Assembly (NCBI GenBank): GCA_965223325.1 | Contig: CBDCWI010000002.1 | Location: forward strand, 4,416,001 to 4,480,000 | Origin: Candidatus Multivoradales bacterium | Lineage (GTDB): Bacteria; Acidobacteriota; Thermoanaerobaculia; Multivoradales; Multivoraceae | Length of the DNA: 64,000 nucleotides | Direction of reading: 5' to 3' | Shown here: positions 27,083 to 63,069 of the stretch, one piece after another | How positions within the stretch are numbered: position 1 is the first letter of the stretch | Layout: each line of letters begins with the position of its first letter | Program-made: the position numbers and the translations under genes | Notes under the pieces: generated by a model | Told to the model about the DNA's origin: nothing | The model's database searches: none | The model's input: the letters and a program-made list of their open reading frames with translations, nothing else

Positions 27083-27312
27083 GATCGCGCGGCGATGCCG
27101 CGCTCAGTCGGGAGTAGGTTTCGAGCCCAAGTGGTGGCGCAGAGCCAGGCCCAACGGGTAGCCGATTCACGACTGACAGTTGGTCAATGGCGAGGGTCGT
27201 CCGATAGGGTTAAGGCCCCTTGCAGGACAGTCGGTGGTTCCGTGCGAAGGTCATGGCCCATCAATTGCGGTATGTCCCCACTGACGCGAGTGGTTGGGGA
27301 GCCGTCGAAGTC
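27083..27312 (+). mobile_element. Family B left end plus first ~20 transposase codons (truncated, diverged)
   Basis: GATCGCGCGGCGATGCCGCGC...; ATGGCCCATCAATTGCGGTATGTCCCC = MAHQLRYVP. Confidence 0.85.
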
Positions 27313-27408: not shown

Positions 27409-28434
27409 TCATTCAGCCTTCGGTCGCCGCGTGTGCTTCGTCGCTGCGTATTCCTTTACGGCATTGCGTGAGCTGCGCCATAGACCGTCTGCGCCTTGAA
27501 CCGCGTCGAGTCGACCGCGTTGCGCGGCTTGCCGGAGCGCTGGCACCGAGAAGTCGTCGTCGGCGAGCGCCGCCAACGGGACCAGCCGAGCGGGTCCGGC
27601 CACGTTCGGTACGACGAAGCGATTGAGGTTGTCGAGCATCGCCCTTGCGATGATCTCACCGAGTGCTCCGTGATCGCCGTCGTCGGCACGCTGAAGAGCC
27701 CGAATGTACGCGTCGCGCTCCTTCTTGTAGATGACGACTGGGGGATAGCCGAGACGCACCAGTGTCAGGTTCAGCGCGAGGCGACCGACTCGCCCGTTGC
27801 CGTCGATGAACGGGTGAATGCACTCGAACTGATGGTGGACTCGAGCCAATTCCTCGGGCAGCGGAGCGGCGAGTTTGGCGCCCGACACCACGGTGTCACC
27901 GAGTTCGACTGCCTCGGCGACCCAGTCGGTGAGCAGGGCAGGTACTTCTGGCCACGGTGGTGGGGTCATGCCGCCGCCGAATTCGGCGATCTCGTGTTGG
28001 CGGAAGTTCCCTGGTGACTCGGCATCAGTCGCTTCCGGATGAGGGGCGACACTCCACACTGGCGTCATGGCCATGTGATGGATCCTACGAACTTCGTTCA
28101 AGCTGATTAACCCGCCGTCACTCCAGCCGTCGGGGTCCAGGGCTTGGCCGTACACCCACCGAGCAGCCTCGCTGTAGCCCTCAACTTCCATGTACTCCTT
28201 GATTGGCTTCGCGCCGACCGCGCGGCGCTGGTCAAGAAGCTGCGCGACCTCTCGCAGCGCGAGCGTGTTGCCCTCCAGCGCTGTCGAATGGTGGGCTTCG
28301 AGGTGCCAGATGTCAGACCAGACCGTCTCCGACTCCTTCGGCGAGGGCAATCCGCCGAACCGTTGGTTCAACGCTCGGAGCGCGCCGTCGAGCCGCAGGT
28401 AGATCGTGGCCCTGCTGGGTCGTCCTCGTGCCAT
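27409..28434 (-). CDS. Fic-domain protein with C-terminal HTH-like extension
   Basis: Canonical HPFIDGNGRVGR motif; HSTALEGNT helix. Confidence 0.92.
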   Translation of the reverse strand: MARGRPSRATIYLRLDGALRALNQRFGGLPSPKESETVWSDIWHLEAHHSTALEGNTLALREVAQLLDQRRAVGAKPIKEYMEVEGYSEAARWVYGQALDPDGWSDGGLISLNEVRRIHHMAMTPVWSVAPHPEATDAESPGNFRQHEIAEFGGGMTPPPWPEVPALLTDWVAEAVELGDTVVSGAKLAAPLPEELARVHHQFECIHPFIDGNGRVGRLALNLTLVRLGYPPVVIYKKERDAYIRALQRADDGDHGALGEIIARAMLDNLNRFVVPNVAGPARLVPLAALADDDFSVPALRQAAQRGRLDAVQGADGLWRSSRNAVKEYAATKHTRRPKAE

Positions 28435-29476: not shown

Positions 29477-29588
29477 CGGTTCGTGCAGGAGGAGCTGGTC
29501 GCGGATCGGTGGAGCCCAGGCGGTCACAGGAAGGTTGGGCTCGTGATCTGACTGAGAACGTACGGCAACCTCATCCCGGCCGAGAGGC

Positions 29589-32395: not shown

Positions 32396-32451
32396 GTCTG
32401 GCGTTGCCGCCAAAACTTACCCCCGACCGTGCGCGGCATCGCCGCGCGATC
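32396..32451 (+). mobile_element. Family B solo right end
   Basis: CAAAACTTACCCCCGACCGTGCGCGGCATCGCCGCGCGATC. Confidence 0.9.
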
Positions 32452-35916: not shown

Positions 35917-37773
35917 CTAAAGGGCGCAGGCCTCCTTCTGAAGAGAAGCGTCATCGGGCTCTTTGTCTTGTCCGTGCTCGGCGACCGGTGTCACCTCTTT
36001 TCCCATCGCCGATTCGATCAAGCGCATCAGGCGTCTGCGACGGTCCTCGAGGAACTCGTCGAAGTCATCGCGGCGCAAGAAACCGGGCGAGAGCGCGTGG
36101 CTCGAGAGCAGGTCGTCCATTTCGGCGTCACTCAGGGCCACCTGTTTGTGTTGCTGGATTCTCGGTAGGTATTGAGAGGGGGCTTCGCCACCAATCTTGC
36201 GATTGGCTTTGTAGGAGATCGGCGTCTTGTTGAGAATGGAGTCGTAGCGGTCCTTCCCGATGCCGTGCTTCCTGCACCAGGCACGCGGGAAGATGTGGTG
36301 GATATCGAGAGAGATCTCCTCGGTATCGAGTTCCTTGATGGTGGATTTCCAGAACCAGTCTCTCGAGCCTTCACGAAGAACGAGGACATTGATGCCCTTG
36401 TAGGCGGCGCTGAGCCGCGAGCGAAGCGTGTCGAGGCGCTCAGGCTGAAAGTTTGCGTCTCGCACGGTGCGTGGCAAGGTCGTGTCGTCTTCGAACCAGC
36501 GAAGGAGCTCTTCGTAGTCGTTGGCCATGCGGGTTTCAACGGCGCCGCCGTAGAGCTCACCCAGTACACCAGACCAGAACCAGCGAGCCAGCTTGTCGTA
36601 GACCCTGGGCTCGAGCCAGCGATCGCTCAGCTTCGTGAGCACTGCAGCCAGCGGGACGAGTTGTGTGCTGTAGGGCAGCTCTCGTCGGCTGTAGAAGCAT
36701 TCTTTTCGCAGGAAGCGCGCGGCGTTTCGGAACCCACCCTCCAGGTCATTGGCCCACTTCTTCCAAGCGGCCAATGGGAGCTGGAGTACGTCGGCCCGTT
36801 TCGCGCTCACGGGGCGAACCTGCTTCCCGCTCTTGCCGGCGGCAAGATCTGCTTTCCTCACTTCGTGGGTGTGAAGCAGACTGATGGCTTGAAGGAACTC
36901 TGTGGCCTCGGTTCCTTCGAGGAGTGGATCTTCTTCCAAACGGGCCTGCCTCGATTCGACTTCGCGAACATCCGAGCCGAACCAATCGTCTCGCAGGTTG
37001 TAGCCGTCGGCCGCATAGCTCGCGGTGATCAACTCGAAGACGGAAAGCTTCACGCCGCCGGTGTTCACTTTCTCGAACACCAGGCACACCGCTTCCTTCG
37101 ACGTCTCTTTCTTGAGCAGGATCAAAGGGAGTTGGTAGCTGCGGAAGGCCGTGAGGACATCGCTACGGAACTTCATGTAGGTGTCGAACTGGTCCGAGGC
37201 AACTCGGTGAAGGGTGGTCTCCCACTCATCGCAGCTCATCACTTGAGAACAGGGAAAGTGGAGCTGTTCGCATTCGCGTTCGGTACTCGAGAGGTCGAGA
37301 TCCACCTGCCGTCCGAAGTCGCTCCGGATCTGCCGGTTCTCGTCAACGGCAATTACGGCTTCGTCCAGGGCATGCGGCGCTTCTACCGCTCGCTTGATGT
37401 CGAAGTAGTAGTGGCGCTTGATCTTCTTGCCCTTCGCGGTCCGCGTGTTGACGGCCTGGGGGAGTGCGAGGGCTTGAGTGAGCGTGGTGAGGCGCTGTTG
37501 CCCATCGAGAATGAGCTTCTCGGGCGCCACGTCCTTCCCGATCATGTCCTCTAGCCCTTCGACAGGCCGGGTCTCGAAGCGGACTTCGCCGCCAGCTTCG
37601 AGCAGCATGACGGCGCCAATTGGAAAGGATCGCGCGATGCTGACGAGTAGATCCTGGATGTGATCGTCGTCCCAGACCCAGCCGCGTTGGAAGTCGGGAA
37701 GCTGGATCCTGCCTTCGGTGATTCCTCTCAGCAGGGCGTTCAGGGATTCCTTGGTGCTGTCGAATGTCGTCAT
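35917..37773 (-). CDS. DUF262/GmrSD-family restriction endonuclease-like protein
   Basis: LPDFQRGWVW, ILDGQQRLTT, VFEKVNTGG.KL, DIHHIFP, N motifs. Confidence 0.9.
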   Translation of the reverse strand: MTTFDSTKESLNALLRGITEGRIQLPDFQRGWVWDDDHIQDLLVSIARSFPIGAVMLLEAGGEVRFETRPVEGLEDMIGKDVAPEKLILDGQQRLTTLTQALALPQAVNTRTAKGKKIKRHYYFDIKRAVEAPHALDEAVIAVDENRQIRSDFGRQVDLDLSSTERECEQLHFPCSQVMSCDEWETTLHRVASDQFDTYMKFRSDVLTAFRSYQLPLILLKKETSKEAVCLVFEKVNTGGVKLSVFELITASYAADGYNLRDDWFGSDVREVESRQARLEEDPLLEGTEATEFLQAISLLHTHEVRKADLAAGKSGKQVRPVSAKRADVLQLPLAAWKKWANDLEGGFRNAARFLRKECFYSRRELPYSTQLVPLAAVLTKLSDRWLEPRVYDKLARWFWSGVLGELYGGAVETRMANDYEELLRWFEDDTTLPRTVRDANFQPERLDTLRSRLSAAYKGINVLVLREGSRDWFWKSTIKELDTEEISLDIHHIFPRAWCRKHGIGKDRYDSILNKTPISYKANRKIGGEAPSQYLPRIQQHKQVALSDAEMDDLLSSHALSPGFLRRDDFDEFLEDRRRRLMRLIESAMGKEVTPVAEHGQDKEPDDASLQKEACAL

Positions 37774-38038
37774 GGGCTGGCGTTTCCTTGGCGTGTTTCG
37801 AGCGGTCGGGGCGGGTTCGAACTCGGTGGTCCGTTCGCTGTCACGGCATGCTCCGAGGGAACTCCCGGTGAATCGTAGGCCTCCCTCGTTGCTACTGCCG
37901 TGCACCGTCAGCGGTAGCCGGCGGGCGTCCCGCTGATTGGGAGTCACCCGAAGCACAGAAATTATAGATTAAGTAGAATTGCGAGACTTGGCTTTTCGGC
38001 AGCCAATACCTCATTTCGAGTTCTTTCGAGGGCAATCG

Positions 38039-39016: not shown

Positions 39017-39160
39017 TTCAGAGCCTAAGGGTCGAGCCAGTCTGAACCGCCCGATCGGGGTGGTCGGTGTTCGTTGGCGTCCCCAGGGAGTCGTCGGCCG
39101 CGTCACACTGTAGCTACGGGTACCGTCATTCGCCCTGGCGGCGTTCCGCGCCTGGCGGCT

Positions 39161-40676
39161 TTCAAGGCACCTATGTTTCACAGCCATTCGAGGTTCACGC
39201 GCCTGCCGAGATTCACGAGCGTCAGCGGCCATCTGGAAAGTGAGCCACCTTGCCTCCAGCGGCGTGCCACCGGCGTAGTACTGCCACGCGACGCCCCGCG
39301 AGCCGCTTGGAACAACGGCACTCGAAGGTGGGGGCCGTAACAAGAGCGCAGATTCTCGGGAGGTACGACTACCAGTTCGCCAAACAACGGCAGCTTCCTC
39401 CCCATGCGTTTCGCCAAGCCCAGGATCTACACGCCCAACCGCGTCGTCGAAGTCACCACGCGCTGCCTCCAGTCGCGTTTCCTCCTGCGCCCGAGCAAAG
39501 AAGTCAACAACGAGATCATCGCCGGCTCGTGCGCAGCGGCTCTACGGAGTGAGCGTCCACGCCTTCTGGTTCGGCTCAAACCACTGCCACCTCTTGCTGT
39601 CTGCCGCATCGCAGTGGCACATCTCGCGCCTCATGGGTTTCACCAACGGAAACATCGCGAGACGAGTTGGCCGGTTGCAGCGTTGGCAGCGAGCGGTTCT
39701 GGTGTCGCCGCTACCAGGGCATCGAACTCACCGCGGAGCCTCAAGCGGCGTTCCAGCGCCTGCGCTACGTCATGGCGCAGGGCTGCAAAGAAGGGCTGAT
39801 TGAATCGCCGCTTGACTGGCCCGGTGTGACGAGTGCTCGGGCTCTTGCCGACGGTTCGATGAAGCTCTCGGGCGTCTGGCTAGATCGCACCGGCTTGTAC
39901 CACGAGCGCGTCCGCCGAGGAGTTATAGGCCCGCGATCCAAACAGCTGAGCCGGAGCGAGCGTCGCGAGGCGAGTCGCAAGATCGACATCACCGAGTTCG
40001 AGACGGTCGAGGAGCTCACTCTCGAGCTTCTGCCGCACTTTGCCGAGCTGAGCGCCGAGGCCTACCGCAAGATGCTCGTCTCGATGATCGAAGACATCGA
40101 GGAAGAGACAGGCCAACGCCTCGATCTCGAAGGTGGGCGGAGCATGGGACGCGAGAAGATCCTCGCCCAGGACCCTCACGCCGCTCCGCGGCAGTCGAAG
40201 CGCAGTCCCGCCCCGGCCTGCCACGCCCACACCCGGGAACAGCGCGTCGCGTTCATCGTCAACCGCTGGCATTTCGTTGTGGCGTACAGGAGGGCGGCGA
40301 GTAGGTTGCGTTCGGGTGAGGAGAACGTCGCGTTCCCGCGAGGTTGCTTTCCGCCGCGTGGCGCGTTCGTTCCGCACGTGGCTCGCGCTCCTGGATAGAA
40401 GGACTTCAGAGTTGCGTCTTTTTGGGACGGCGAATCACGAGATCGCGGCGCGAGCTATGGCGCAGTCAACCGCGCAGCGGCTTGGACCGGCTTGGACGGT
40501 GGTTTGAGGCGTGGTCGCGCCGCGTTGAGGAGGTGTTTGGAGCGGATCTGTTTACGCAGGTTCAGTACGGCCGCAGACTTGGCTCCGGGATCCGACTCGT
40601 GAATCTCGGCATGCGCGTGAATTTCGCATGGCTGTGAAACATAGTTGCCTGGAACGTCTCGAGGCGAAGCCTCGGG
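39161..40676 (+). mobile_element. Family A HUH/Y1 element, frameshifted; left tip degenerate
   Basis: Left and right inverted ends around a transposase pseudogene. Confidence 0.9.
39404..40398 (+). pseudogene. tnpA: Family A Y1 transposase pseudogene
   Basis: Near-identical to 49097..50095 but with a 5-bp deletion near 39524 and a 1-bp insertion near 39688. Confidence 0.9.
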
Positions 40677-40943
40677 ACGGGAGTCCCTCACGCGAAGACT
40701 AGGCGAAAGAGGCCATGAGGCGCGCTCGGTGTGGTCGAAGAGGCGCTCTCACCTCGCCACCCGGATGCCGGGCGCATCCGCCTGCGCCTCGCCTCGCTGC
40801 TGGCTAAGTCGGACGAGACTACCGTCGCCATTCGAAAGGCGGCGCTGGCAATCGAGGTTCTCGCTGAGCATCTCGATCCAGCAAACCCTGAGTTGGCAGA
40901 GGCCCACGAGCTCCTTGACAGTCTCCAGTCAGGAGGCGTCTGA
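40677..40943 (+). pseudogene. 3' fragment of a TPR-like protein abutting the A right end
   Basis: LSPRHPD...LAEHLDPANPELAEA kinesin-light-chain-type TPR pattern; no convincing start. Confidence 0.45.
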
Positions 40944-42526: not shown

Positions 42527-43597
42527 ATGGCGAAGGTGACGAAGGTGAACGTGCTTGTGCTTGGTCTCCTTGTCTTGTTGGTACAGATGATCGGTTGTCA
42601 GCCCGCGTCCGACGAAACGGCTGACGCCACTGCCGACGCTGGGGCTCACGCTGGCGAAAGTCCGGACGTCGAAGCGCAGATCGCGGATGCGTTGTCGGCA
42701 GCGCTCCCGTCGATGGCAGCGACCGCGAGGGTCGTGGACTGGGATGGAAACGTGCTACGGGACGGTGACGGCCCCTACACTTGTATGCCAACTCCGCCAC
42801 AGTTCGTGGATGGCCGTGCCCCGATGTGCATGGACAAGCCGTGGTCGGCATGGGCCGATGCTTGGGGTCGTCGCACCGAGCTCTCGATCTCGCACCTCGG
42901 GATCTCCTACATGCTGGCCGGCGACGAAGGCGCGAGCAACATCGACCCCTTCGCCACCGAGGCTACAGCGGAGAACGAGTGGGTGGTGGAAGGGCCGCAC
43001 CTGATGCTTATCGTGCCCGACCCGGCGCTGCTCGAGGGCATCTCGACCGACCCAGACAACGGCGGTCCTTACGTGATGTGGAAAGGGACGCCCTACGCTC
43101 ACGTTATGGTTCCGGTGGAGCTCAGCGACGTTACGGAGGCCGCCCCAGACGCTCTTGCCGACGCGTTGTCGGCGGCCAACCCGTCGATGGCCAACAGGGT
43201 GACCGTGATGGACTGGGAGGGCAACGTTTTGAGGGAAGGTGAGGGTGACTACACCTGCATGCCAACTCCACCACAGTTCGCCGACGGTCGAGCTCCGATG
43301 TGCATGGACGCGCCCTGGTCTGCCTGGGCCGAGGCCTGGAGCAGCCGCGGTGAGCTCACCATCGATCGGCTCGGGATCTCCTACATGCTGGCCGGTGACG
43401 AGGGCGCGAGCAACGTCGACCCCTTCGCCACGGAGGCGACGGCTGATAACGAGTGGGTAGTGGAGGGGCCGCACCTGATGCTCATCGTGCCCGACCCGGC
43501 GCTGCTCGGGAACATCGGCACCGACCCAGACAACGGCGGACCGTACGTGATGTGGGAGGGGTCACCCTACGCACATGTGATGGTGCCCTTGGACTAA
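42527..43597 (+). CDS. Putative lipoprotein with two tandem ~145-aa homologous domains
   Basis: MIGC lipobox-like; duplicated PMCMD.PW...GISYMLAGD.GASN.DPFA...EGPHLM...PYVMW.G.PYAHVM. Confidence 0.8.
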   Translation: MAKVTKVNVLVLGLLVLLVQMIGCQPASDETADATADAGAHAGESPDVEAQIADALSAALPSMAATARVVDWDGNVLRDGDGPYTCMPTPPQFVDGRAPMCMDKPWSAWADAWGRRTELSISHLGISYMLAGDEGASNIDPFATEATAENEWVVEGPHLMLIVPDPALLEGISTDPDNGGPYVMWKGTPYAHVMVPVELSDVTEAAPDALADALSAANPSMANRVTVMDWEGNVLREGEGDYTCMPTPPQFADGRAPMCMDAPWSAWAEAWSSRGELTIDRLGISYMLAGDEGASNVDPFATEATADNEWVVEGPHLMLIVPDPALLGNIGTDPDNGGPYVMWEGSPYAHVMVPLD

Positions 43598-44721: not shown

Positions 44722-44883
44722 TCATCGGGTCGGCACTAGACGCTCGAGCTCATCGAACCAGTTCTCGACCAACACCACCTTGGCTTTCGAGAGCTCAGCC
44801 CCTCGAGGCATGACGAAGTGTCGTCCATCGGGCGTCACGTCGAAAAGCCTGTGTGGCCAACCAATCATCCGGGGTCTTGGCTC
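44722..44883 (-). pseudogene. C-terminal fragment of a kinase/PD40-type protein cut at the B left end
   Basis: FDVTPDGRHFVM...VVLVENWFDELERLVPTR*, similar to the tail of 24157..27000. Confidence 0.7.
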
Positions 44884-46283
44884 GATCGCGCGGCGATGCC
44901 GCCCACGGTCGGGGGTAAGTTTTGAGTCGAAGTTGTGGCGCAGGGCCGGGACTCGCCACCGACCTGACGTGTAGCCCGATTCACAAATGACAGTTGGTCG
45001 ATGGCGAGGGTCATCCGCTAAGATTTCACTCCCTGCAGGACATCGATGGCTCCGGGCGAAGAGTCATGGCCCATCAACTGAGATACGTCCCCACCGACTC
45101 GAGCGGTTGGGGAGTCGTCGAAGTGACGGTGCGCATCGTCAACGGATTCTTCCTGTTGGCGCCATCGTCACGCCTGCGCGACCTGCTGATCGGGATCATC
45201 GGCCGCGCGCAGCGAAAGACCGAAATCCGGATCCACGCCCTGGACTACCAGGTCAATCATGCCCACCTTCTGCTGGGCGCTCGCGACGCCCAGCAGCTGG
45301 CCGATTTCATGCGGCGCATTCAGCACCAGACGAGTGTGGAACTACGGATCCTGCGCGGGTGGAAGGGTCCGAAATGGGAAGGGCCCTACAAGACGTCGTT
45401 CCCCGGTCACGCGAAGAAGGACCTCTGCCGGCGCTTTCGCTACATCCTTGCCCAGGGTTGCAAGGCGGGGTTGGTGTCTTCACCTCGCAAGTGGCCAGGC
45501 GTGTCGGTAGGGGAGGCGTTGTGGTCAGGGACCTTCGAGCTCGAGGGCACCTGGGTCGATCGTTCAGCGCTTCGTCGTGCCCGTTTCTCGAAAGCCGGTC
45601 GTCGTTTGAGCGAAAAGGACTTCTCGAGCCGCGAGACGGTCGTTTTATCGAAGCTTCCGTGCTTCGAGGACCTCCCTGACGAGGAGTACTTCGACTGGGC
45701 CCGCGGGATGATTGTTGAGATCGAGGACGAGACCCGGGTGCGCCACAAACGGGAGGGAACGAGGCCTCGCGGCGCCTACAAGACAACGCAGGTGAGTCCG
45801 ATGCGCCGTCCGAGGAAGCTCGATTGGGGGCCGAGGCCTCGGGTCATCGCGTCGGACTCGTTCGAGCGCAATCGGCTGCTTTCGGTTTTCGATGCGGTGA
45901 GGCGAGCGCATCGCGCGGCGCGCGATCTTCTGTGGAGTGGTGACCTGGAGGCGCGATTTCCGCCCGGGACTTTTCCAAGCCCGCTGCCGTTTGTGGCCCT
46001 GGAAGTGGCTGGGCCGGGTGCACGCGACGGTCCCTGAGTCCAGGCCGCCGCCGAAGAGGTTGACGAGGTTGAGGGGGACGCACCGGCAGGTGTGGTGGCG
46101 GAGCTGCGTCTGTCGGGTGGAGTGCCGAGGCTTCAGGGGTGGCGAAGGCGACGTCTCTGCCCTCGCGACACCCATCGAGGTGGTGAAAGAGGACGATGGA
46201 GTGCTTCGGAACTCGGCGCGTCGCCTTGTCTGGTGTTGCCGTGAAAACTTACCCCCTACCGTGCGCGGCATCGCCGCGCGATC
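44884..46283 (+). mobile_element. Family B HUH/Y1 element, complete (1400 bp)
   Basis: GATC-to-GATC with ~41-bp inverted ends. Confidence 0.92.
45066..46037 (+). CDS. tnpA: Family B Y1 (RAYT/IS200-like) HUH transposase, 323 aa
   Basis: HUH motif NHAHLLL; YILAQGCKAGLV..P..WPG; C-terminal FPPGTF. Confidence 0.88.
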   Translation: MAHQLRYVPTDSSGWGVVEVTVRIVNGFFLLAPSSRLRDLLIGIIGRAQRKTEIRIHALDYQVNHAHLLLGARDAQQLADFMRRIQHQTSVELRILRGWKGPKWEGPYKTSFPGHAKKDLCRRFRYILAQGCKAGLVSSPRKWPGVSVGEALWSGTFELEGTWVDRSALRRARFSKAGRRLSEKDFSSRETVVLSKLPCFEDLPDEEYFDWARGMIVEIEDETRVRHKREGTRPRGAYKTTQVSPMRRPRKLDWGPRPRVIASDSFERNRLLSVFDAVRRAHRAARDLLWSGDLEARFPPGTFPSPLPFVALEVAGPGARDGP

Positions 46284-46486
46284 CCCGGAAACACTGGCCT
46301 GAAATCGCCGTCTGACGAGGGGGTTTTTGGCCACCCCTCCCCCAGCCGACCCGAGGCCTCGCCTCGGGTCGGTCTGTATGCGCGGGTTTCTACCCCGCAT
46401 CAGCACACCATCGCCATGCAGCTGCACCAGCTGCGCGAGTTCCTCGAGCGACGAGGCTGGCAAGAGACGATCGTCGTCAAGGAGGC
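46284..46486 (+). pseudogene. N-terminal fragment of a serine resolvase between two B elements
   Basis: RVGLYARVSTPHQHTIAMQLHQLREFLERRGW...KE with catalytic YARVS. Confidence 0.8.
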
Positions 46487-47885
46487 GGGCGGCGATGCCG
46501 CCCCCGGCCGCCCCCGGTCGGGGGTAAGTTTTGAGCCGAAGTTGTGGCGCAGTGCGACGCCTCGCCACCGACCGGACGTGTAGCCCGATTCACAAATGAC
46601 AGTTGGTCGATGGCGAGGGTCATCCGCTAGGATTCGGCTCCCTGCAGGACATCGATGGCTCCGGGCGAAGAGTCATGGCCCATCAACTGAGATACGTCCC
46701 CACCGACTCGAGCGGTTGGGGAGTTGTCGAAGTGACGGTTCGAATCGTCAACGGGTTCTTCCTGTTGGCGCCATCGTCACACCTACGCGACCTGCTGATC
46801 GGGATCATCGGCCGCGCGCAGCGAAAGACCGAGATCCGGATTCACGCCCTGGACTACCAGGTCAATCATGCTCACCTTCTGCTGGGCGCTCGCGACGCCC
46901 AACAGCTGGCCGACTTCATGCGGCGCATTCAGCACCAGACGAGTGTGGAACTACGGATCCTGCGCGGGTGGAAGGGTCCGAAATGGGAAGGGCCGTACAA
47001 GACGTCGTTTCCCGGTCACGCGAAGAAGGACCTCTGCCGTCGTTTCCGCTACATCCTTGCCCAGGGTTGCAAGGCGGGGTTGGTGTCTTCACCGCGCAAG
47101 TGGCCAGGCGTGTCGGTGGGGGAGGCGCTGTGGTCAGGGACCTTCGAGCTCGAGGGCACGTGGGTCGACCGCTCCGCGCTTCGACGTGCTCGTTTCTCGA
47201 AAGCGGGGCGTCGTTTGAGCGAAAAGGACTTCTCGAGCCGCGAGACGGTCGTCTTATCGAAGCTTCCGTGCTTCGAGGACCTCCCGGACGAGGAGTACTT
47301 CGACTGGGCCCGCGGGATGATTGTAGAGATCGAGGACGAGACCCGGGCGCGCCACAAGCGAAAGGGCACGAGGCCTCGCGGCGCCTACAAAACGACGCAA
47401 GTGAGTCCAATGCGTCGCCCGCGGAAGCTGGATTGGGGGCCGAGGCCTCGGGTCATCGCGTCGGACTCGTTCGAGCGCAATCGGCTGCTTTCGGTTTTCG
47501 ATGCGGTGAGGCGAGCGCATCGTGCGGCGCGCGATCTTCTGTGGGGTGGTGACCTGGAGGCGCGGTTTCCCCCCGGAACTTTCCCAAGCCCGCTGCCGTT
47601 CGTGGCCCTGGAAGTGCCTGGGCCGGGTGCACGCGACGGTCCCTGACGGCCCAGGCCACCGGCGAAGAGGTTGAGGGGGACGCACCGATCGGTGTGTTGG
47701 CGGAGCTCCGTTTGTCGGGCGGAGTACCGACGTTCAGGAGTGGCGACGGCGAGGTTTCTGCCTTCGTCACCGCCCTTCGAGGTCGGAGAAGAGGGCGATG
47801 GAGCGCGCGAAGGCTCGGCGCTTCGTCCAGTCCAGCGTTGCCGTCAAAACTTACCCCCGACCGTGCGCGGCATCGCCGCGCGATC
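46487..47885 (+). mobile_element. Family B element; left tip degenerate with a 10-bp duplication
   Basis: GGGCGGCGATGCCGCCCCCGGCCGCCCCCGGTCGGGGGTAAG ... CGCCGCGCGATC. Confidence 0.9.
46675..47646 (+). CDS. tnpA: Family B Y1 HUH transposase
   Basis: Near-identical to 45066..46037. Confidence 0.88.
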   Translation: MAHQLRYVPTDSSGWGVVEVTVRIVNGFFLLAPSSHLRDLLIGIIGRAQRKTEIRIHALDYQVNHAHLLLGARDAQQLADFMRRIQHQTSVELRILRGWKGPKWEGPYKTSFPGHAKKDLCRRFRYILAQGCKAGLVSSPRKWPGVSVGEALWSGTFELEGTWVDRSALRRARFSKAGRRLSEKDFSSRETVVLSKLPCFEDLPDEEYFDWARGMIVEIEDETRARHKRKGTRPRGAYKTTQVSPMRRPRKLDWGPRPRVIASDSFERNRLLSVFDAVRRAHRAARDLLWGGDLEARFPPGTFPSPLPFVALEVPGPGARDGP

Positions 47886-48836: not shown

Positions 48837-50352
48837 CGCCTCGGCGAGCGAGGTTCCAGGCACCTATGTTTCTCAGCCATGCGAGGTTCACGCGCCTGCC
48901 GAGATTCACGAGCGTCAGCGGCCATCAGGAAAGTGAGCCACCTTGCCTCCAGCGGCGTGCCACCGGCGTAGTGCTGCCACGCGACGCGCCGCGAGCCGCT
49001 TGGAACAACGGCACTCGAAGGTGGAGGCCGTAACAAGAGCGGAGATTCTCGGGAGGTACGACAACCAGTTCGCCAAACAACGACAGCTTCCTCCCCATGC
49101 GTTTCGCCAAACCCAGGATCTACACGCCCAACCGCGTCGTCGAAGTCACCACGCGCTGCCTCCAGTCGCGTTTCCTCCTGCGGCCGAGCAAAGAAGTCAA
49201 CAACGAGATCATCGCCGTCCTGGCTCGTGCGCAGCGGCTCTACGGAGTGAGCGTCCACGCCTTCTGGTTCGGCTCAAACCACTGCCACCTCTTGCTGTCC
49301 GCCGCATCGCAGTGGCACATCTCGCGCTTCATGGGTTTCACCAACGGAAACATCGCGAGACGAGTTGGCCGGTTGCAGCGTTGGCGCGAACGTTTCTGGT
49401 GCCGCCGTTACCAGGGCATCGAACTCACCGACGAGCCGCAGGCCGCCTACCAGCGCCTGCGCTACGTCTTGGCGCAGGGCTGCAAAGAAGGGCTGATTGA
49501 TTCGCCGCTTGACTGGCCCGGTGTGACGAGTGCTCGGGCTCTTGCCGACGGTTCGATGAAGCTCTCGGGCGTCTGGCTCGATCGCACTGGCTTGTACCAC
49601 GAGCGCGTCCGCCGAGGAGTTATTGGCCCGCGGTCCAAACGGCTGAGCCGGAGGGAGCGTCGCGAGGCGAATCGCAAGATCGACATCACCGAGTTCGAGA
49701 CGGTCGAGGAGCTCACTCTCGAGCCCCTGCCGCACTTTGCCGAGCTGAGCGCCGAGGCCTACCGCAAGATGCTCGTCTCGATGATCGAAGACATCGAGGA
49801 AGAGACAGGCCAACGCCTCGATCTCGCAGGTGGGCGGAGCATGGGACGCGAGAAGATTCTCGCCCAGGACCCTCACGCCGCTCCGCGCCATTCGAAGCGC
49901 AGCCCCGCCCCGGCCTGCCACGCCCACACCCGGGAACAGCGCGTCGCGTTCATCGTCAACCGCTGGCATTTCGTTGTGGCGTACAGGAGGGCGGCGCGTA
50001 GGTTGCGTTCGGGTGAGGAGAACGTCGCGTTCCCGCGAGGTTGCTTCCCGCCGCGTGGCGCGTTCGTTCCGCACGCGGCTCGCGCTCCTGGATAGAAGGA
50101 CTTCAGTGTTGCGTCTTTTGTGACGGCGATCACGAGATTCGCGGCGCGAGCTATGGCTTTGGTTGTTGCGCTGGCGACTCGAGGGCGGTTCGAGGCGTGA
50201 CCGGGCCTTGGCGACCGGTCGTTTCGCGCGAATCGGTTAGCGCGCGCTCGGCAAAGCGGTGAGTTTCGCGCCGGAGTCTGCCTCGTGAATCTGGATATGC
50301 CCCTGAAGCTCGCTTGGCACCGAAACATAGTTGCCTGGAACGTCTCAGGCGA
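48837..50352 (+). mobile_element. Family A element with a divergent right-end allele
   Basis: Left end at 48837; right end CTCGTGAATCTGGATATGCCCCTGAAGCTCGCTTGGCACCGAAACATAGTTGCCTGGAACGTCTC. Confidence 0.9.
49097..50095 (+). CDS. tnpA: Family A Y1 (RAYT/IS200-like) HUH transposase, 332 aa
   Basis: EVTTRC...FLLRP, SNHCHLLL (HUH), FWCRRY, YVLAQGCKEGLI..P.DWPG, FPRGCFPP. Confidence 0.88.
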   Translation: MRFAKPRIYTPNRVVEVTTRCLQSRFLLRPSKEVNNEIIAVLARAQRLYGVSVHAFWFGSNHCHLLLSAASQWHISRFMGFTNGNIARRVGRLQRWRERFWCRRYQGIELTDEPQAAYQRLRYVLAQGCKEGLIDSPLDWPGVTSARALADGSMKLSGVWLDRTGLYHERVRRGVIGPRSKRLSRRERREANRKIDITEFETVEELTLEPLPHFAELSAEAYRKMLVSMIEDIEEETGQRLDLAGGRSMGREKILAQDPHAAPRHSKRSPAPACHAHTREQRVAFIVNRWHFVVAYRRAARRLRSGEENVAFPRGCFPPRGAFVPHAARAPG

Positions 50353-50363
50353 GAACTCGGCGC

Positions 50364-50481
50364 GGACACCCATCGAGGCGGTGAAAGAGGACGATGGAGT
50401 GCTTCGGAACTCGGCGCGTCGCCTTGTCTGGCGTTTCCGTGAAAACTTACCCTCGACCGTGCGCGGCATCGCCGCGCGATC
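50364..50481 (+). mobile_element. Family B solo right end fused to the A right end
   Basis: Matches 46167-46283 closely; ends CGCCGCGCGATC. Confidence 0.9.
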
Positions 50482-53214: not shown

Positions 53215-53259
53215 GATCGCGCAGCGATGCCGCGCACAGTCGGGGGTAGGTTTTGAGCC
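53215..53259 (+). mobile_element. Family B solo left end
   Basis: GATCGCGCAGCGATGCCGCGCACAGTCGGGGGTAGGTTTTGAGCC. Confidence 0.85.
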
Positions 53260-53463: not shown

Positions 53464-54986
53464 GACGCTCCAGGCACCTATGTTTCATAGCCATGCGAGG
53501 TTCACGCGCCTGCCGAGATTCACGAGCGTCAGCGGCCGTCAGGAAAGTGAGCCACCTTGCCTCCAGCGGCGTGCCACCGGCGAAGTCCTGCCAGGCGATG
53601 CCCCGCGAGGCGCTTTGAACAACGGCACTCGAAGGCGGGGGCCGTAACAAGAGCGCAGATTCTCGGGAGGTACGACAACCAGGATCGCCAAACAACGGCA
53701 GCTTCCTCCCCATGCGTTTCGCCAAGCCCAGGATCTACACGCCCAACAGCGTCGTCGAAGTCACCACGCGCTGCCTCCAGTCGCGTTTCCTCCTGCGCCC
53801 GAGCAAAGAAGTCAACAACGAGATCATCGCCGTCCTGGCTCGTGCGCAGCGGCTCTACGGAGTGAGCGTCCACGCCTTCTGGTTCGGCTCAAACCACTGC
53901 CATCTCTTGCTGTCCGCCGAATCGCAGTGGCACATCTCGCGCTTCATGGGTTTCACCAACGGAAACATCGCGAGACGAGTTGGCCGGTTGCAGCGTTGGC
54001 GCGAGCGGTTCTGGTGTCGCCGTTACCAGGGCATCGAACTCACCGACGAGCCGCAAGCCGCCTACCAGCGTCTCCGCTACGTCTTGGCGCAGGGCTGCAA
54101 AGAAGGGCTGATTGATTCGCCGCTTGACTGGCCCGGTGTGACCAGTGCTCGCGCTCTTGCCGGCGGCTCGATGAAGCTCTCGGGCGTCTGGCTAGATCGC
54201 ACCGGCCTGTACCACGAGCGCGTCCGCCGAGGAGTGATCGGCCCGCGATCCAAACAGCTGAGCCGGAGCGAGCGTCGCGAGGCGAATCGCAAGATCGACA
54301 TCACCGAGTTCGAGACGGTCGAGGAGCTCACTCTCGAGCCCCTGCCGCACTTTGCCGACCTGAGCGCCGAGGCCTACCGCAAGATGATCGTTTCGATGAT
54401 CGAAGACATCGAGGAAGAGACAGGCCAACGCCTCGATCTCGAAGGTCGGCGGAGCATGGGACGCGAGAAGATTCTCGCCCAGGACCCTCACGCCGCTCCG
54501 CGGCAGTCGAAGCGCAGCCCCGCCCCGGCCTGCCACGCCCACACCCGGGAACAGCGCGTCGCGTTCATCGTCAACCGCTGGCATTTCGTTGTGGCGTACA
54601 GGAGGGCGGCGCGTAGGTTGCGTTCGGGTGAGAAGAACGTCGCGTTCCCTCGAGGTTGCTTTCCGCCGCGCGGCGCGTTCGTTCCGCACGCGGCTCGCGC
54701 TCCTGGATAGAAGGACTTCAGTGTTGCGTCTTTTGGGGACGGCGATCACGAGATCGCGGCGCGAGTTATGGCGCAGTCAATCGCGCAGCGGCTTGGACTG
54801 GCTTGGACGGTGGTTTGAGGTGTGATCGAGCCGCGTTGAGGAGGTGTTTGGAGCGGATCTGCTTGCGCATGTCCAGTACGGCCGCAGACTTGGCTCCGGG
54901 ATCCGACTCGTGAATCTCGGCATGCGCGTGAACCTCGCATGGCTATGAAACATAGTTGCCTGGAACGTCTCCGAGGCGGCCTCGGG
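53464..54986 (+). mobile_element. Family A element, intact transposase
   Basis: GACGCTCCAGGCACCTATG ... TGGAACGTCTCCGAGGCGGCCTCGGG. Confidence 0.9.
53712..54710 (+). CDS. tnpA: Family A Y1 HUH transposase, 332 aa
   Basis: Near-identical to 49097..50095. Confidence 0.88.
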   Translation: MRFAKPRIYTPNSVVEVTTRCLQSRFLLRPSKEVNNEIIAVLARAQRLYGVSVHAFWFGSNHCHLLLSAESQWHISRFMGFTNGNIARRVGRLQRWRERFWCRRYQGIELTDEPQAAYQRLRYVLAQGCKEGLIDSPLDWPGVTSARALAGGSMKLSGVWLDRTGLYHERVRRGVIGPRSKQLSRSERREANRKIDITEFETVEELTLEPLPHFADLSAEAYRKMIVSMIEDIEEETGQRLDLEGRRSMGREKILAQDPHAAPRQSKRSPAPACHAHTREQRVAFIVNRWHFVVAYRRAARRLRSGEKNVAFPRGCFPPRGAFVPHAARAPG

Positions 54987-55545
54987 AGATCGAGGACGAG
55001 ACCCGGGCGCGCCACAAGCGAAAGGGCACGAGGCCTCGCGGCGCCTACAAAACGGCGCAGGTGAGTCCGATGCGCCGTCCGAGGAAGCTCGATTGGGGGC
55101 CGAGGCCTCGGGTCATCGCGTCGGACTCGTACGAACGCAATCGGCTGCTTTCGGTTTTCGATGCGGTGAGGCGAGCGCATCGTGCGGCGCGCGATCTTCT
55201 GTGGGGTGGTGACCTGGAGGCGCGGTTTCCCCCCGGAACTTTCCCAAGCCCGCTGCCGTTCGTGGCCCTGGAAGTGCCTGGGCCAGGTACACGCGACGGT
55301 CCCTGACGGCCCAGGCCACCGGCGAAGAGGTTGAGGGGGACGCACCGATCGGTGTGTTGGCGGAGCTCCGTTTGTCGGGCGGAGTACCCACGTTCAGGAG
55401 TGGTGAAGGCGAGGTTTCTGCCTTCGTCACCGCCCTTCGAGGTCGGAGAGGAGGGCGATGGAGCGCGCGAAGGCTCGGCGCTTCGTCCAGTCCAGCGTTG
55501 CCGTCAAAACTTACCCCCGACCGTGCGCGGCATCGCCGCGCGATC
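54986..55545 (+). mobile_element. Family B 3' half (transposase from EIEDET to stop 55306, plus right end)
   Basis: Begins directly after the A right hairpin. Confidence 0.88.
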
Positions 55546-56297
55546 TTCGAGCTCGAGGGCACCTGGGTCGATCGTTCGGCGCTTCGCCGTGCCCGTTTCT
55601 CGAAAGCCGGTCGTCGTTTGAGCGAAAAGGACTTCTCGAGCCGCGAGACGGTCGTGTTATCGAAGCTTCCGTGCCTCGAGGACCTCCCTGACGAGGAGTA
55701 CTTCGACTGGGCCCGCGGGATGATTGTTGAGATCGAGGACGAGACCCGGGTGCGCCACAAGCGAGAGGGGACGAGGCCTCGCGGTGCCTACAAGACGATG
55801 CAGGTGAGTCCGATGCGCCGTCCGAGGAAGCTCGATTGGGGGCCGAGGCCTCGGGTCATCGCGTCGGACTCGTACGAACGCAATCGCCTGCTTTCGGTTT
55901 TCGATGCGGTGAGGCGAGCGCACCGCGCGGCACGGGATCTTCTGTGGAGTGGTGACCTGGAGGCGAAGTTTCCGCCTGGCACTTTTCCAAGCCCGCTGCC
56001 GTTTGTGGCCTTGGAAGTGCCTGGGCCGGGTGCACGCGACGGTCCCTGACGGTCCGGGCCGCCGGCGAAGAGGTTGACAAGGTTGAGGGTGACGCACCTA
56101 TCGGTGTGATGGCGGAGCTGCGTTTGTCGGGCAGAGTGCCGAGGTTTCAGGGGTGGCGAAGGCGAGGTTTCTGCCCTCGCGATGACCGATCGAGGTGGTG
56201 GAGAAGGCTGATGGAGCGCTCTGGATTCGGCGCGGCGCCTTCGTCGGCGCTGCCATCAAAACTTACCCCCTACCGTGCGCGGCATCGCCGCGCGAAC
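55546..56297 (+). mobile_element. Family B 3' half (transposase from FELEGT to stop 56049, plus right end)
   Basis: Begins directly after the GATC of the preceding B end; terminal GAAC variant. Confidence 0.88.
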
Positions 56298-57643: not shown

Positions 57644-59037
57644 GATCGCGCGGCGATGCCGCGCCCAGTCGGGGGTAAGTTTTGAGTCGAAGTCGTGGCG
57701 CAGGACCGGGACTCGCCACCGGCCCAACGTGTAGCCCGATTCACAAGATGACAGTTGGTCGATGGCGAGGGTCATCCGCTAGGATTCGGCTCCCTGCAAG
57801 GCATCGATGGTTCCGTGCGATGAGTCATGGCCCATCAACTGAGGTATGTCCCCACCGACGGAAGCGGTTGGGGAGTCGTCGAAGTGACGGTGCGCATCGT
57901 CAACGGATTCTTCCTGTTGGCGCCATCGTCACGCCTGCGCGACCTGCTGATCGGGATCATCGGCCGCGCGCAGCGAAAGACCGAAATCCGGATCCACGCC
58001 CTGGACTACCAGGTCAATCATGCCCACCTTCTGCTGGGCGCTCGCGACGCCCAGCAGCTGGCCGATTTCATGCGGCGCATTCAGCACCAGACGAGTGTGG
58101 AACTACGGATCCTGCGCGGGTGGAAGGGTCCGAAATGGGAAGGGCCCTACAAGACGTCGTTCCCCGGTCACGCGAAGAAGGACCTCTGCCGGCGCTTTCG
58201 CTACATCCTTGCCCAGGGCTGCAAGGTGGGATTGGTGTCTTCACCGCGCAAGTGGCCAGGCGTGTCGGTGGGGGAGGCGCTGTGGTCAGGGACCTTCGAG
58301 CTCGAGGGCACCTGGGTCGATCGTTCGGCGCTTCGTCGTGCCCGTTTCTCGAAAGCCGGTCGTCGTTTGAGCGAAAAGGACTTCTCGAGCCGCGAGACGG
58401 TCGTTTTATCGAAGCTTCCGTGCTTCGAGGACCTCCCTGACGAGGAGTACTTCGACTGGGCCCGCGGGATGATTGTAGAGATCGAGGACGAGACCCGGGT
58501 GCGCCACAAACGGGAGGGAACGAGGCCTCGCGGCGCGTACAAAACGACGCAAGTGAGTCCAATGCGTCGCCCGCGGAAGCTCGATTGGGGGCCGAGGCCT
58601 CGGGTCATCGCGTCGGACTCGTTCGAGCGCAATCGGCTGCTTTCGGTTTTCGATGCGGTGAGGCGAGCGCATCGCGCGGCGCGGGATCTTCTCTGGAGTG
58701 GTGACCTGGAGGCGCGGTTTCCCCCCGGGACTTTTCCAAGCCCGCTGCCCTTTGTGGCCTTGGAAGTGCCTGGGCCGGGTGCACGCGACGGTCCCTGACG
58801 GCCCAGCCCACCGGCGAAGAGGTTGAGGGGGATGCACCGATCGGTGTGTTGGCGGAGCTCCGTTTGTCGGGCGGAGTACCGACGTTCAGGAGTGGCGAAG
58901 GCGAGGTTTCTGCCTTCGTCACCGCCCCTCGAGGTCGGAGAAGAGGGCGATGGAGCGCGCGAAGGCTCGGCGCTTCGTCCAGTCCAGCGTTGCCGTCAAA
59001 ACTTACCCCCGACCGTGCGCGGCATCGCCGCGCGATC
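57644..59037 (+). mobile_element. Family B element, complete
   Basis: GATC-to-GATC with inverted ends. Confidence 0.92.
57827..58798 (+). CDS. tnpA: Family B Y1 HUH transposase, 323 aa
   Basis: NHAHLLL; YILAQ. Confidence 0.88.
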   Translation: MAHQLRYVPTDGSGWGVVEVTVRIVNGFFLLAPSSRLRDLLIGIIGRAQRKTEIRIHALDYQVNHAHLLLGARDAQQLADFMRRIQHQTSVELRILRGWKGPKWEGPYKTSFPGHAKKDLCRRFRYILAQGCKVGLVSSPRKWPGVSVGEALWSGTFELEGTWVDRSALRRARFSKAGRRLSEKDFSSRETVVLSKLPCFEDLPDEEYFDWARGMIVEIEDETRVRHKREGTRPRGAYKTTQVSPMRRPRKLDWGPRPRVIASDSFERNRLLSVFDAVRRAHRAARDLLWSGDLEARFPPGTFPSPLPFVALEVPGPGARDGP

Positions 59038-59142
59038 TGCCATCAAAACTCACCCCCTACCGTGCGCGGCCTCTCGGCGCGCCGCCCAGTACGGCGATGC
59101 CGTCAACCTTACCCCGACCGTGCGCAGCATCGCCGCGCGATC
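59038..59142 (+). repeat. Two extra tandem family B right tips
   Basis: TGCCATCAAAACTCACCCCCTACCGTGCGCGG... and TGCCGTCAACCTTACCCCGACCGTGCGCAGCATCGCCGCGCGATC. Confidence 0.85.
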
Positions 59143-61975: not shown

Positions 61976-63069
61976 GGCGGGGCCTCCAGATCAGAGCGCC
62001 CATCGAGAGCACGTAGGCCGGTGATCAGGATCCGCGCCTTCATGTCCTCCGATAGTTCCTGGTCGGCCCGGACCTTGGAGACGAAGCGGCCTCGAACTGT
62101 GGGTTCCTTCTCGAGGCCATCCAGGTCGTAGCCCGGTTGGAGGCCCTGCGACCGGAGTACGATCTGTTCCACGTCGCCGGTCGGGCTGGATAGGCGCTCG
62201 AGGTTGAGATCTATATGGGCAGACAGTTCACCTTTGAGAGTGACCCGGACGACGCCTTTCAGGTGCCTCAGTTCGCCCGAGATCAGCTCGCGTAGCTCGT
62301 CGCAGTGATTGCACGACGTGAGGTCGATGAAGACATCATGCACCTCCGAGACGGCTACAGAGAATCGCTCCCGCGAGATGACCCCGTCGGAGCCGATCTG
62401 GGCGACTACCATCCCACGGTTCCCTGTCTCCCCGAAGGCGAGGGGGTCTGGGTTGCCTGGGTAGGTGAAAAGGTCCTGGTCGGCCGGAGCGTGGTAGTGG
62501 CCTACGAATGCATGCTGAAAGCCGGCCCTTTCGATGTCGGGGCTTTCGAACGGCGCGTGGGGCGCTTGGGAGGCCGTCGCCGGAACGGAGCTGGAGTCTG
62601 CTCCGTGGAAGAGGGCGACGTGGGTGGAGCCGGGCGGGGTTCTGAAGCCACCGAAGAAGGAATCGCAGCGTGTGGGTCCGGTGAACGCTGCGCCCCAGAG
62701 ACAGAGACCGCCTGCGAGTTCTGTCGACTGAAACTCACCCGTCTTGAAAAGGTGTACGTTCGAAGACCATGAGACCTGATGGTAGAGGCTATTCGGCCCG
62801 TACCAGTCGTGGTTTCCGGGACTGATGTAGATCGGGAGCGGGGTGTCTCCGAAGGAAGTGCGAAGGAACTCTCGAGTATCGGGTGACACGCGGTCGTGCT
62901 CATAGAGATCTCCCGCACACAGGATAGCGTCGACTCGCTGCTCCTGGGCGAGATTCAGGATCCTTCTCAAGCAGGCACGGAGAGCGCCGCGACGACGTTT
63001 CGCCACATCGCGTTTTGCCCAGGCAAAGGGGGAATCGAGATGGAGATCAGCGAAGATGGCGAGTCGCAT
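61972..63069 (-). CDS. SbcD/Mre11-like (YhaO-type) metallophosphoesterase nuclease
   Basis: ADLHLD, AGDLYE, PGNHD, FHG, GHYH, YPGNP. Confidence 0.9.
   Translation of the reverse strand: MRLAIFADLHLDSPFAWAKRDVAKRRRGALRACLRRILNLAQEQRVDAILCAGDLYEHDRVSPDTREFLRTSFGDTPLPIYISPGNHDWYGPNSLYHQVSWSSNVHLFKTGEFQSTELAGGLCLWGAAFTGPTRCDSFFGGFRTPPGSTHVALFHGADSSSVPATASQAPHAPFESPDIERAGFQHAFVGHYHAPADQDLFTYPGNPDPLAFGETGNRGMVVAQIGSDGVISRERFSVAVSEVHDVFIDLTSCNHCDELRELISGELRHLKGVVRVTLKGELSAHIDLNLERLSSPTGDVEQIVLRSQGLQPGYDLDGLEKEPTVRGRFVSKVRADQELSEDMKARILITGLRALDGRSDLEAPP

Follow-up and report, generated by a model that had tools for sequence, protein, structure and literature searches.

A repeated, IS-like unit with hairpin-tipped inverted ends around a long RAYT-like Y1 gene in an acidobacterial genome

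A 64,000-nucleotide stretch of the genome of a Candidatus Multivoradales bacterium (GenBank assembly GCA_965223325.1, contig CBDCWI010000002.1, positions 4,416,001 to 4,480,000, forward strand; hereafter the window) contains a 1.4-kb unit, B7, in which a single gene for a 323-residue HUH/Y1 protein lies between inverted ends tipped by a GC hairpin. The genome that contains the window comprises 6.69 Mb in two contigs, C1 and C2. An earlier note, made from the letters of the window alone, had described the unit as a mobile insertion sequence (IS) of a new class, with a RAYT-like enzyme, near-identical copies and a GATC foot at either end. That interpretation was largely right on the type of enzyme and on the IS-like behaviour; it overstated the identity of the copies, the constancy of GATC and the lack of precedent.

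The two arms of B7 match in inverted orientation at 38 of 40 bases (95% over 40 bases by blastn), and the sequence of the ends and their arrangement around one HUH gene read as the earlier note had claimed. From the outside inward, each end consists of GATC, a 7-bp GC hairpin and then GGTCGGGGGTAAGTTTT; the left hairpin, GCGCGGC-GAT-GCCGCCC, contains one stem mismatch. The 13-mer GGGGGTAAGTTTT occurs 12 times in the window with at most one mismatch, against 0.03 expected, a count reached by none of 100 shuffles. Among nine copies, conservation amounts to 95% in the inner motif, 95% in the left hairpin and 83% in the right hairpin, compared with a baseline of 86% at third codon positions and 74–80% in the 3' untranslated part, where metagenome contigs omit 66–197 bases between 46037 and 46259. 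The hairpin is supported by this conservation, by one compensatory double change in the stem (GGGCGGC/GCCGCCC, in copies B4 and B8) and by an analogous hairpin at the ends of a related family, Family A. No other reading frame in the unit is backed by a family match or by conservation, and a scan of 44800–46400 for sigma-70-type promoters returned no sites.

The B7 protein carries the HUH motif NHAHLL and RYILAQGCKAGLVSSPRKWPG, and its homologues start at the ATG at 45066. In the hidden Markov model search suggested by the earlier note, Pfam Y1_Tnp matched the protein at 25.4 bits (cut-off 23), whereas the NCBIfam RAYT equivalog model and the NCBIfam IS200/IS605 transposase model gave 32.6 and 16.8 bits, below their cut-offs of 80 and 55, respectively. 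Among 61 family members, all matched the RAYT model and 22 the IS200 model (E ≤ 0.01); no Pfam domain other than Y1_Tnp was found in any of the 61, and hence none over the C-terminal extension and no helix-turn-helix (HTH). Alignment of these sequences revealed that H65 and Y126 are invariant and H67 nearly so, that Y126 is the only invariant tyrosine, and that a C-terminal FP.G.FPP motif is conserved. The tyrosine motif is YILAQG in B7 and Y-x-L-x-[QNH]-[GSA] across the family.

The AlphaFold model of the B7 protein (predicted local distance difference test, pLDDT, 93.2; predicted template modelling score, pTM, 0.89) finds its best PDB match, by Foldseek and VIA alike, in 4ER8, the REP-associated transposase of E. 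coli (Foldseek E 4e-6; template modelling score 0.70 by target length). VIA gave 4ER8 a Z score of 15.1, with a root-mean-square deviation of 2.9 over 156 residues, and IS608 TnpA a Z score of 8.9. By sequence profile, the family is about equally distant from ISDra2 TnpA (2e-6) and RAYT (2e-4). The Pfam, NCBIfam RAYT and 4ER8 matches agree with the Y1 HUH protein and RAYT-like core proposed at the outset, and the long conserved C-terminal extension proposed with them is seen both in the 61-member alignment and in the model. In the model, a single helix lies between the HUH strand and the following strand, and the extension of ~170 residues, which comprises two strands and two long helices, is predicted to pack on the core. 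The C-terminal part could also be modelled alone (pLDDT 85.5, pTM 0.47); the best of 48,161 chains reached only Z 3.9, so that no known fold could be assigned, which does not prove a new one.

Searching the whole genome with the B7 unit by blastn yielded 10 full-length or nearly full-length copies, the query included, and many fragments of either end. Contrary to the earlier note, these copies fall short of near-identity: the other nine are 89.2–95.2% identical to B7 in DNA, with proteins 96–99% identical, and a single pair, B4 and B5, has identical coding sequences. All nine B reading frames are intact and exactly 972 nucleotides long, with pairwise synonymous divergence (dS) of 0.08–0.39 and a median ratio of nonsynonymous to synonymous divergence (dN/dS) of 0.07. 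The majority of the copies cluster in one repeat-rich stretch across the contig break, and dispersed copies lie at 1.727 Mb on C1 and 2.355 Mb on C2; three full copies and at least seven fragments fall within the window (Table 1). Flanking DNA differs from copy to copy, and the boundaries are sharp, at the same bases, in unrelated places. B ends were found within a resolvase-like gene, RHS-like genes and other B copies. In B8, the left end is without GATC, its hairpin is the variant GGGCGGC/GCCGCCC and 10 bases are duplicated; this end interrupts a fragment of a resolvase-like gene, and the opposite junction of B8 (47885) falls within an RHS-like gene. The interrupted fragment is the start of a resolvase-like (serine recombinase) gene (46383–46486, ...VSTPHQHTIAMQLHQLREFLERRGW...), and its 90% identical paralog on C2 (1573817–1574068) is intact across the point of the B8 left junction.

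Over the genome, fragments number about 9 distinct right-end against 5 left-end ones, as tallied from blastn, and just one derivative resembles a miniature inverted-repeat transposable element (258 bp, an internal deletion, single copy). In contigs from four runs of one study of a source-type metagenome, depth on the B unit is far above that of the flanks, and several different continuations were observed past 44888, 46280 and 46283; coming from mixed samples, these contigs indicate the presence and variety of junctions, not rates.

Table 1 Coordinates, within the window, of B7, other B copies and fragments, and Family A units.
Feature	Position	Strand	Details
B7, full unit	44884..46283	+	1400 bp; 40-bp inverted ends
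B7 left inverted end	44884..44923	+	GATC 44884-44887; hairpin 44888-44904; inner motif ACGGTCGGGGGTAAGTTTT 44905-44923
B7 gene, 323-residue HUH/Y1 protein	45066..46037	+	RAYT-like core, residues about 1-150; conserved extension to about residue 305
B7 variable 3' untranslated part	46038..46243	+	74-80% identity among copies
B7 right inverted end	46244..46283	-	inner motif 46244-46262; hairpin GCGCGGC-ATC-GCCGCGC 46263-46279; GATC 46280-46283
B8, second full copy	46487..47885	+	gene 46675-47646
B9, third full copy	57644..59037	+	gene 57827-58798; mosaic with copy B3 of contig C1
5'-truncated B copy	54986..55545	+	unit positions 834-1400; starts at internal GATC, adjoining a Family A end
5'-truncated B copy	55542..56295	+	unit positions 647-1398; directly after the right end of fragment 54986..55545
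B right-end remnant	50361..50481	+	unit positions 1281-1400
Two degenerate B right-end remnants, in tandem, after B9	59038..59142	+
Solo B right end	32396..32451	+
Solo B left end	53215..53254	+
Divergent B left-end fragment	27083..27311	+	unit positions 1-241; 79% identity
Family A unit	48838..50370	+	related Y1 gene 49097-50095
Family A, second copy	53452-54995		gene 53712-54710
Family A, further unit	39145-40684		other Family A ends at 29577, 33409, 63878

We compared the junctions with paralogous DNA lacking the element, writing each with the hairpin to the right (5'-flank-NNNN-hairpin). At the right junction of B7, GATC and the hairpin come after the flank ...TTTCCGGG, whereas a 100% identical flank in C1 continues as GGTCGAGGGAGG, that is, GGTC and other DNA. 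At the right junction of B2, four of the five flank paralogs without the element read GGTC and one TGTC, and at a nested right junction (window 55541; fragment 55542..56295) all 11 other B copies read GGTC. Three independent right-end comparisons therefore show GATC in the filled site and GGTC in the uninterrupted paralogous DNA. Further readings on the uninterrupted side are GAGC, GCTC, GACC and GGTA. Across ten right-end comparisons, the first of the four bases is G in filled and uninterrupted sequence alike; the sole left-end comparison gave AGGC versus AGGT, and B ends reading CATC and TATC also occur. With a relaxed pattern, GATC precedes the hairpin in 22 of 38 end-like rows, a set in which two pairs are duplicates and five ends come from a separate 300-bp repeat. 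A fixed GATC foot does not fit these counts, nor a first G common to the uninterrupted target. Judging from the aligned junctions, the first G of GATC probably belongs to the target and the element probably starts with ATC and the hairpin, with G/GTC (the slash marking the join) as the putative preferred target site. No target-site duplication was seen at B junctions. The ends of Family A adjoin target DNA directly at the hairpin tip (five junctions).

To place B7 in its wider family, we searched 1.84 billion representative proteins with phmmer, which returned 2119 proteins at E ≤ 0.001, 833 at ≤ 1e-10 and at least 150 at ≤ 1e-30, the last counted as clusters at 50% identity; among the matches listed, proteins are mostly about 300–320 residues long and aligned over most of their length. 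The genome of B7 itself yields 48 tblastn segments of the family, including the nine intact B genes, and of 41 related genomes, 29 carry the family, in multiple copies and with as many as 43 matches in one genome. In a complete genome of the same order, most of the 10 copies are 80–90% identical, with homology confined to the gene plus about 55 bp, and two copies on different replicons match at 99.9% over 1257 bp. Two genomes besides that of B7 have such pairs, 97.5–99.9% identical over 1.2–1.3 kb and lying at different places.

Subfamily B' comprises eight copies with about 60% protein identity to B, in 1.35–1.4-kb units at unrelated sites, which form groups 82–96% identical within each group. 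Each B' unit is bounded by CAGTCGGGGGGACTTTCC in inverted orientation, present twice in direct repeat on the left; hairpin and GATC are both absent. Family A is a repeated unit of about 1.5 kb whose Y1 protein is about 32% identical to that of B; its 60–87-bp inverted ends consist of the hairpin CCGAGGC-TTC-GCCTCGG, four bases and then GTTCCAGGCACCTATGTTTCA, and include a GGCACC box. One Family A copy is inserted in a B copy directly after an internal GATCTC. A maximum-likelihood tree joins B and B', two well-supported clades, as sisters (95/90) and places A, D and E in clades of their own; recent duplicates occur in B', A, D and E. Because the ends of B, B' and A differ by protein clade, end sequence follows the protein. 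A related-locus search found no relative with a single-protein query and succeeded with a smaller alignment as query. In 47 loci from metagenome-assembled genomes of Acidobacteriota and Myxococcota, GGTGCC boxes point inward on both sides of the gene, with 57 forward and 15 reverse upstream and 18 forward and 34 reverse downstream. In distant members (loci L013–L089), the upstream boxes are often in tandem, 11–15 bp apart, and the downstream ones lie about 225–300 bp behind the gene.

Like B, the REPtrons, which combine a RAYT gene with repetitive extragenic palindromes (REPs), have a hairpin with a short 5' foot, inverted on both sides of the gene; the best structural match of the B protein, 4ER8, comes from such a system, and both proteins read GLV..P..WP after the catalytic tyrosine. 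The genome has no REP population: its 6.7 Mb contain 25 perfect hairpins and about 40 end-like sites, and the close copies (at most one mismatch) all lie at B-type ends. We rejected a REP interpretation on the ground that the hairpin is not dispersed in the genome. A REPtron gene is typically present once per genome, whereas the B gene is multi-copy; in the survey of Bertels et al (2017; PMC5581495), as described there, RAYTs are mostly single-copy, with duplicates at most 6.2% in Group 1. RAYT class 2, in the account of Quentin et al (2018; PMC6006769), is marked by the motif Y---NP, in place of which B has YILAQG along with its extra 170-residue extension.

The IS200/IS605 elements share with B the Y1 HUH chemistry, end hairpins, the absence of a visible target duplication, a multi-copy habit with partial copies and, in the protein, Y---Q. 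Their insertion 3' of a specific tetra- or pentanucleotide also has a possible counterpart in B, in the GGTC at three independent one-sided junctions. IS200/IS605 elements lack terminal inverted repeats (TIRs), having instead subterminal hairpins that differ between left and right and lie on one strand, whereas B has 40-bp inverted repeats; their transposases are about 130–150 residues long compared with 323 in B, and the structural match of B to them is weaker than to RAYT.

Genes of RAYT-like type flanked by inverted repeats have been described before. Di Nocera et al (2013; PMC3733652) named such genes between long inverted repeats TIRtrons and their enzymes TIRYTs, describing a GGGGWSAS box shared by the majority of cases and a sharply defined acidobacterial group. 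The B unit resembles them in that a RAYT-like HUH/Y1 gene lies between long TIRs rather than GTAG REPs, and some of the TIRs published there are partly self-complementary, as the B ends are. Read by eye, GGGGTAAG in B and GGGGGGAC in B' each agree with the TIRtron consensus at 7 of 8 positions. By that account, TIRtrons are essentially single genes, sometimes accompanied by families of solo TIRs, whereas the whole B unit occurs in ~10 copies with fragments and few solo ends. Quentin et al (2018; PMC6006769) distributed Y1 proteins over 12 subclasses and placed most TIRYTs in subclass 2.1, with a median length of 238 residues and an HTH or DnaA_C-like tail; the B protein has 323 residues, no Pfam HTH (0 of 61 members) and no Y---NP. 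Their subclass 2.3, described as long (median 325 residues), with several diverged copies per genome, no REPs, an HUH motif reading NHYH and subclass-specific C-terminal domains, is similar in these respects. It is also described as carrying the motif YVDLNP and a 55-residue core insertion between beta3 and alphaC, where the B model has a single helix, and as occurring in Chromatiales and Alteromonadales, while the B family is found in Acidobacteriota and Myxococcota. Compared by published descriptions and motifs rather than by profiles or alignment, the B protein fits none of the motif signatures given by these authors (YILAQG, no NP, no HTH, no 55-residue insertion) and is an apparently unclassified long Y1 transposase. 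The claim of a wholly new class is not supported, given the TIRtron/TIRYT precedent (PMC3733652, PMC6006769), which goes part of the way towards the refutation that the earlier note had set for itself, though in the literature consulted we found neither a described family with these ends nor, judging by the titles and abstract openings listed, a multi-copy, hairpin-ended element of this kind; we regard the element as an IS-like multi-copy variant of a known arrangement.

We propose, with a probability of roughly 0.6, that the 1.4-kb unit is an IS-like element whose sole gene encodes its own transposase, a long HUH Y1 enzyme with a RAYT-like core. The unit is repeated and has inverted, hairpin-tipped ends that vary by clade; HUH and tyrosine residues are conserved on a Y1 fold, and junctions match uninterrupted DNA on one side. 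The enzyme would recognise both the GC hairpin, in its extruded form on single-stranded DNA, and the neighbouring GTCGGGGG motif, cut at the outer foot of the hairpin and join that end beside a G/GTC-like site; the terminal GATC would then represent one target G and the element's own ATC. Since both ends have the same sequence in inverted orientation, either strand could be processed. By analogy with its structural relatives, the element most likely acts on single-stranded DNA, and it might be cut out as a single-stranded circle, in the manner of IS608, or follow a one-ended route of the copy type. The copies are old, are mosaics by recombination and are under purifying selection, suggesting that activity is low or past, or that new variants arrive from outside.

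Several results weigh against this proposal. Within the genome, no copy has both flanks matching one uninterrupted site, and the search for empty sites that the earlier note had envisaged gave one-sided matches only; because every flank comparison is one-sided, we infer whole-unit transposition rather than observe it directly. Recombination between copies or a one-ended mechanism may account for this one-sidedness. In a same-genus genome (G001), compared at the one B' locus L098, the flanks are ~65% identical, lie on different contigs and are not syntenic. The mobility proposed at the outset is thus borne out by a unit repeated at unrelated places, by truncated copies and by ends adjoining DNA that is uninterrupted elsewhere, but not by a complete empty site. 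As single-stranded DNA, the B7 hairpins fold no better than GC-rich shuffles (left z +1.2 and +0.4; right −1.3 and −0.4). A tblastn search of 72,556 plasmids gave no match, and the full 36-nucleotide end pattern none in a metagenome contig collection, where a looser 22-nucleotide pattern retrieved three loci, all without hairpin and without Y1 gene. Dispersed full-length family copies show no clear bias relative to replication, such as IS200/IS605 elements have (9 with, 7 against); clustered copies (19 with, 1 against) are not independent. Some B copies have flanks in common, and B3 and B9 agree completely (100%) over the flank and about 220 bp from the start of the unit, after which identity drops to 92–98% and finally to 71–80%; shared flanks and this mosaic indicate that segmental duplication and recombination add to the copy count. 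Finally, the B copies are unusually diverged for an IS and, as far as their sequences go, intact frames and low dN/dS would also fit domesticated paralogs.

The main rival to the IS reading is accordingly a domesticated multi-copy family, in which TIRtron-type paralogs are kept for a host task on single-stranded DNA and have multiplied mainly by segmental duplication and recombination in a variable island, with the ends serving as regulatory or processing sites. Besides a dN/dS of about 0.07, dS of up to 0.39 and nine of nine frames intact, it would account for the single identical pair, the shared flanks and mosaic copies, and the 10 copies of the other complete genome, mostly 80–90% identical with homology over the gene plus about 55 bp; RAYTs in general are described as housekeeping-like (PMC5581495). 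We consider it unlikely in view of sharp unit boundaries at the same bases in unrelated sites, the many truncated and solo-end remnants with one deletion derivative, ends within other genes and other copies, near-identical pairs on different replicons in relatives, and recent duplicates in B', A, D and E.

Distinctly improbable, in our estimate, is a mobile element that moves by a one-ended, rolling-circle-like route, its right end being the constant origin end beside a tetranucleotide and its other boundary variable. Such a route is known from IS91/ISCR, in which an HUH enzyme inserts DNA beside a tetranucleotide (GTTC/CTTG for IS91) with one constant end, a variable other boundary and capture of adjacent DNA. 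In B, right-end fragments are commoner (about 9 versus 5), all three GGTC-target junctions are right ends, every insertion is matched on one side, and a 300-bp unit with a B-type end but without the opposite end heads orphan RHS cassettes. The IS91/ISCR enzymes are, however, larger, with two catalytic tyrosines and a different fold arrangement, and their ends are not 40-bp inverted repeats with hairpins. The B family has one invariant tyrosine, Y126, among 61 sequences and a RAYT/IS200-like fold, full B units carry two equivalent inverted ends, and nested insertions with recombination could equally yield the truncations. That the ends belong to another transposase acting in trans, the Y1 gene being a passenger, is scarcely credible: 40-bp TIRs are typical of DDE-type insertion sequences and the Y1 protein is tied to the ends by indirect evidence, but the unit has no other supported reading frame, target-site duplication was not seen, each of five protein clades within the one genome has an end sequence of its own, and oriented boxes flank the gene family-wide.

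Returning to the IS-like element, it is conceivable, though on balance doubtful, that these ~310-residue proteins constitute an unclassified deep branch of Y1 HUH enzymes, with a RAYT-like core and an unmatched extension, that forms an autonomous transposon with symmetric, hairpin-tipped inverted ends joining at G/GTC. The family would then represent a surviving link between IS200/IS605 elements and domesticated RAYT/REP systems, and the B-type end heading orphan RHS cassettes would point to a part for a Y1 enzyme in the shuffling of polymorphic-toxin tips. Most accounts present RAYT-type enzymes as tamed relatives of IS200 transposases that occur in single copy, and the transition from IS to REP/RAYT is an open question. 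This family, widespread in Acidobacteriota and Myxococcota (at least 150 clusters below E 1e-30; 29 of 41 related genomes), pairs a RAYT-like fold with IS-like habits, namely whole-unit copies, decayed fragments, nested insertions and clade-specific ends. Its symmetric ends offer a simple test bed for processing of both strands by a Y1 enzyme and for the role of the extra 170 residues, and the G/GTC rule, if it holds, would be a new specificity among the few known single-strand transposases.

Outside the window, a 300-bp repeat occurs in 5–6 copies in one orientation at C2 2015000–2029000 (locus L129), and at about 1782000 on C1. It starts exactly with a B-type end, (G)ATC and the hairpin followed by ACGGTCGGGGGGACTTTCC, and after about 180 bp it passes into the sequence for the conserved end of the RHS core (...DPVFGD...NPTVWVDPDGR); the orphan toxin cassettes to which this belongs lie downstream of an RHS-repeat gene. 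The opposite end is absent, and two flanks have paralogs that diverge right at the hairpin tip; Rfam gave no matches on the RHS array locus. At the degenerate copy B6 (C2 2354593–2358600, locus L093), the left end adjoins a remnant of RHS core-end coding sequence (...VDPYGLDE) beside an Ntox28-domain gene. Polymorphic-toxin loci are thus a recurrent setting for B units.

Within the window, a Fic-domain gene (27412–28434), a GmrSD-type restriction endonuclease gene (35920–37956) and an SbcCD-like pair (AAA/SMC_N and calcineurin-like phosphoesterase, 59162–63069) were found, and the neighbourhood has the look of a variable or defence island. A 356-residue, secreted-looking protein (42527–43597) without a Pfam match consists of two halves about 78% identical (direct repeat 42683–42982 and 43157–43456). 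The cumulative GC skew falls throughout C1 and turns on C2 at about 0.34 Mb and about 3.5 Mb. On this evidence, C1 in reverse orientation would link the end of C2 to its start, giving one 6.69-Mb chromosome with its origin near 3.5 Mb of C2. The terminus of C1 lies within a B copy, so the assembly probably broke in the B repeat cluster.

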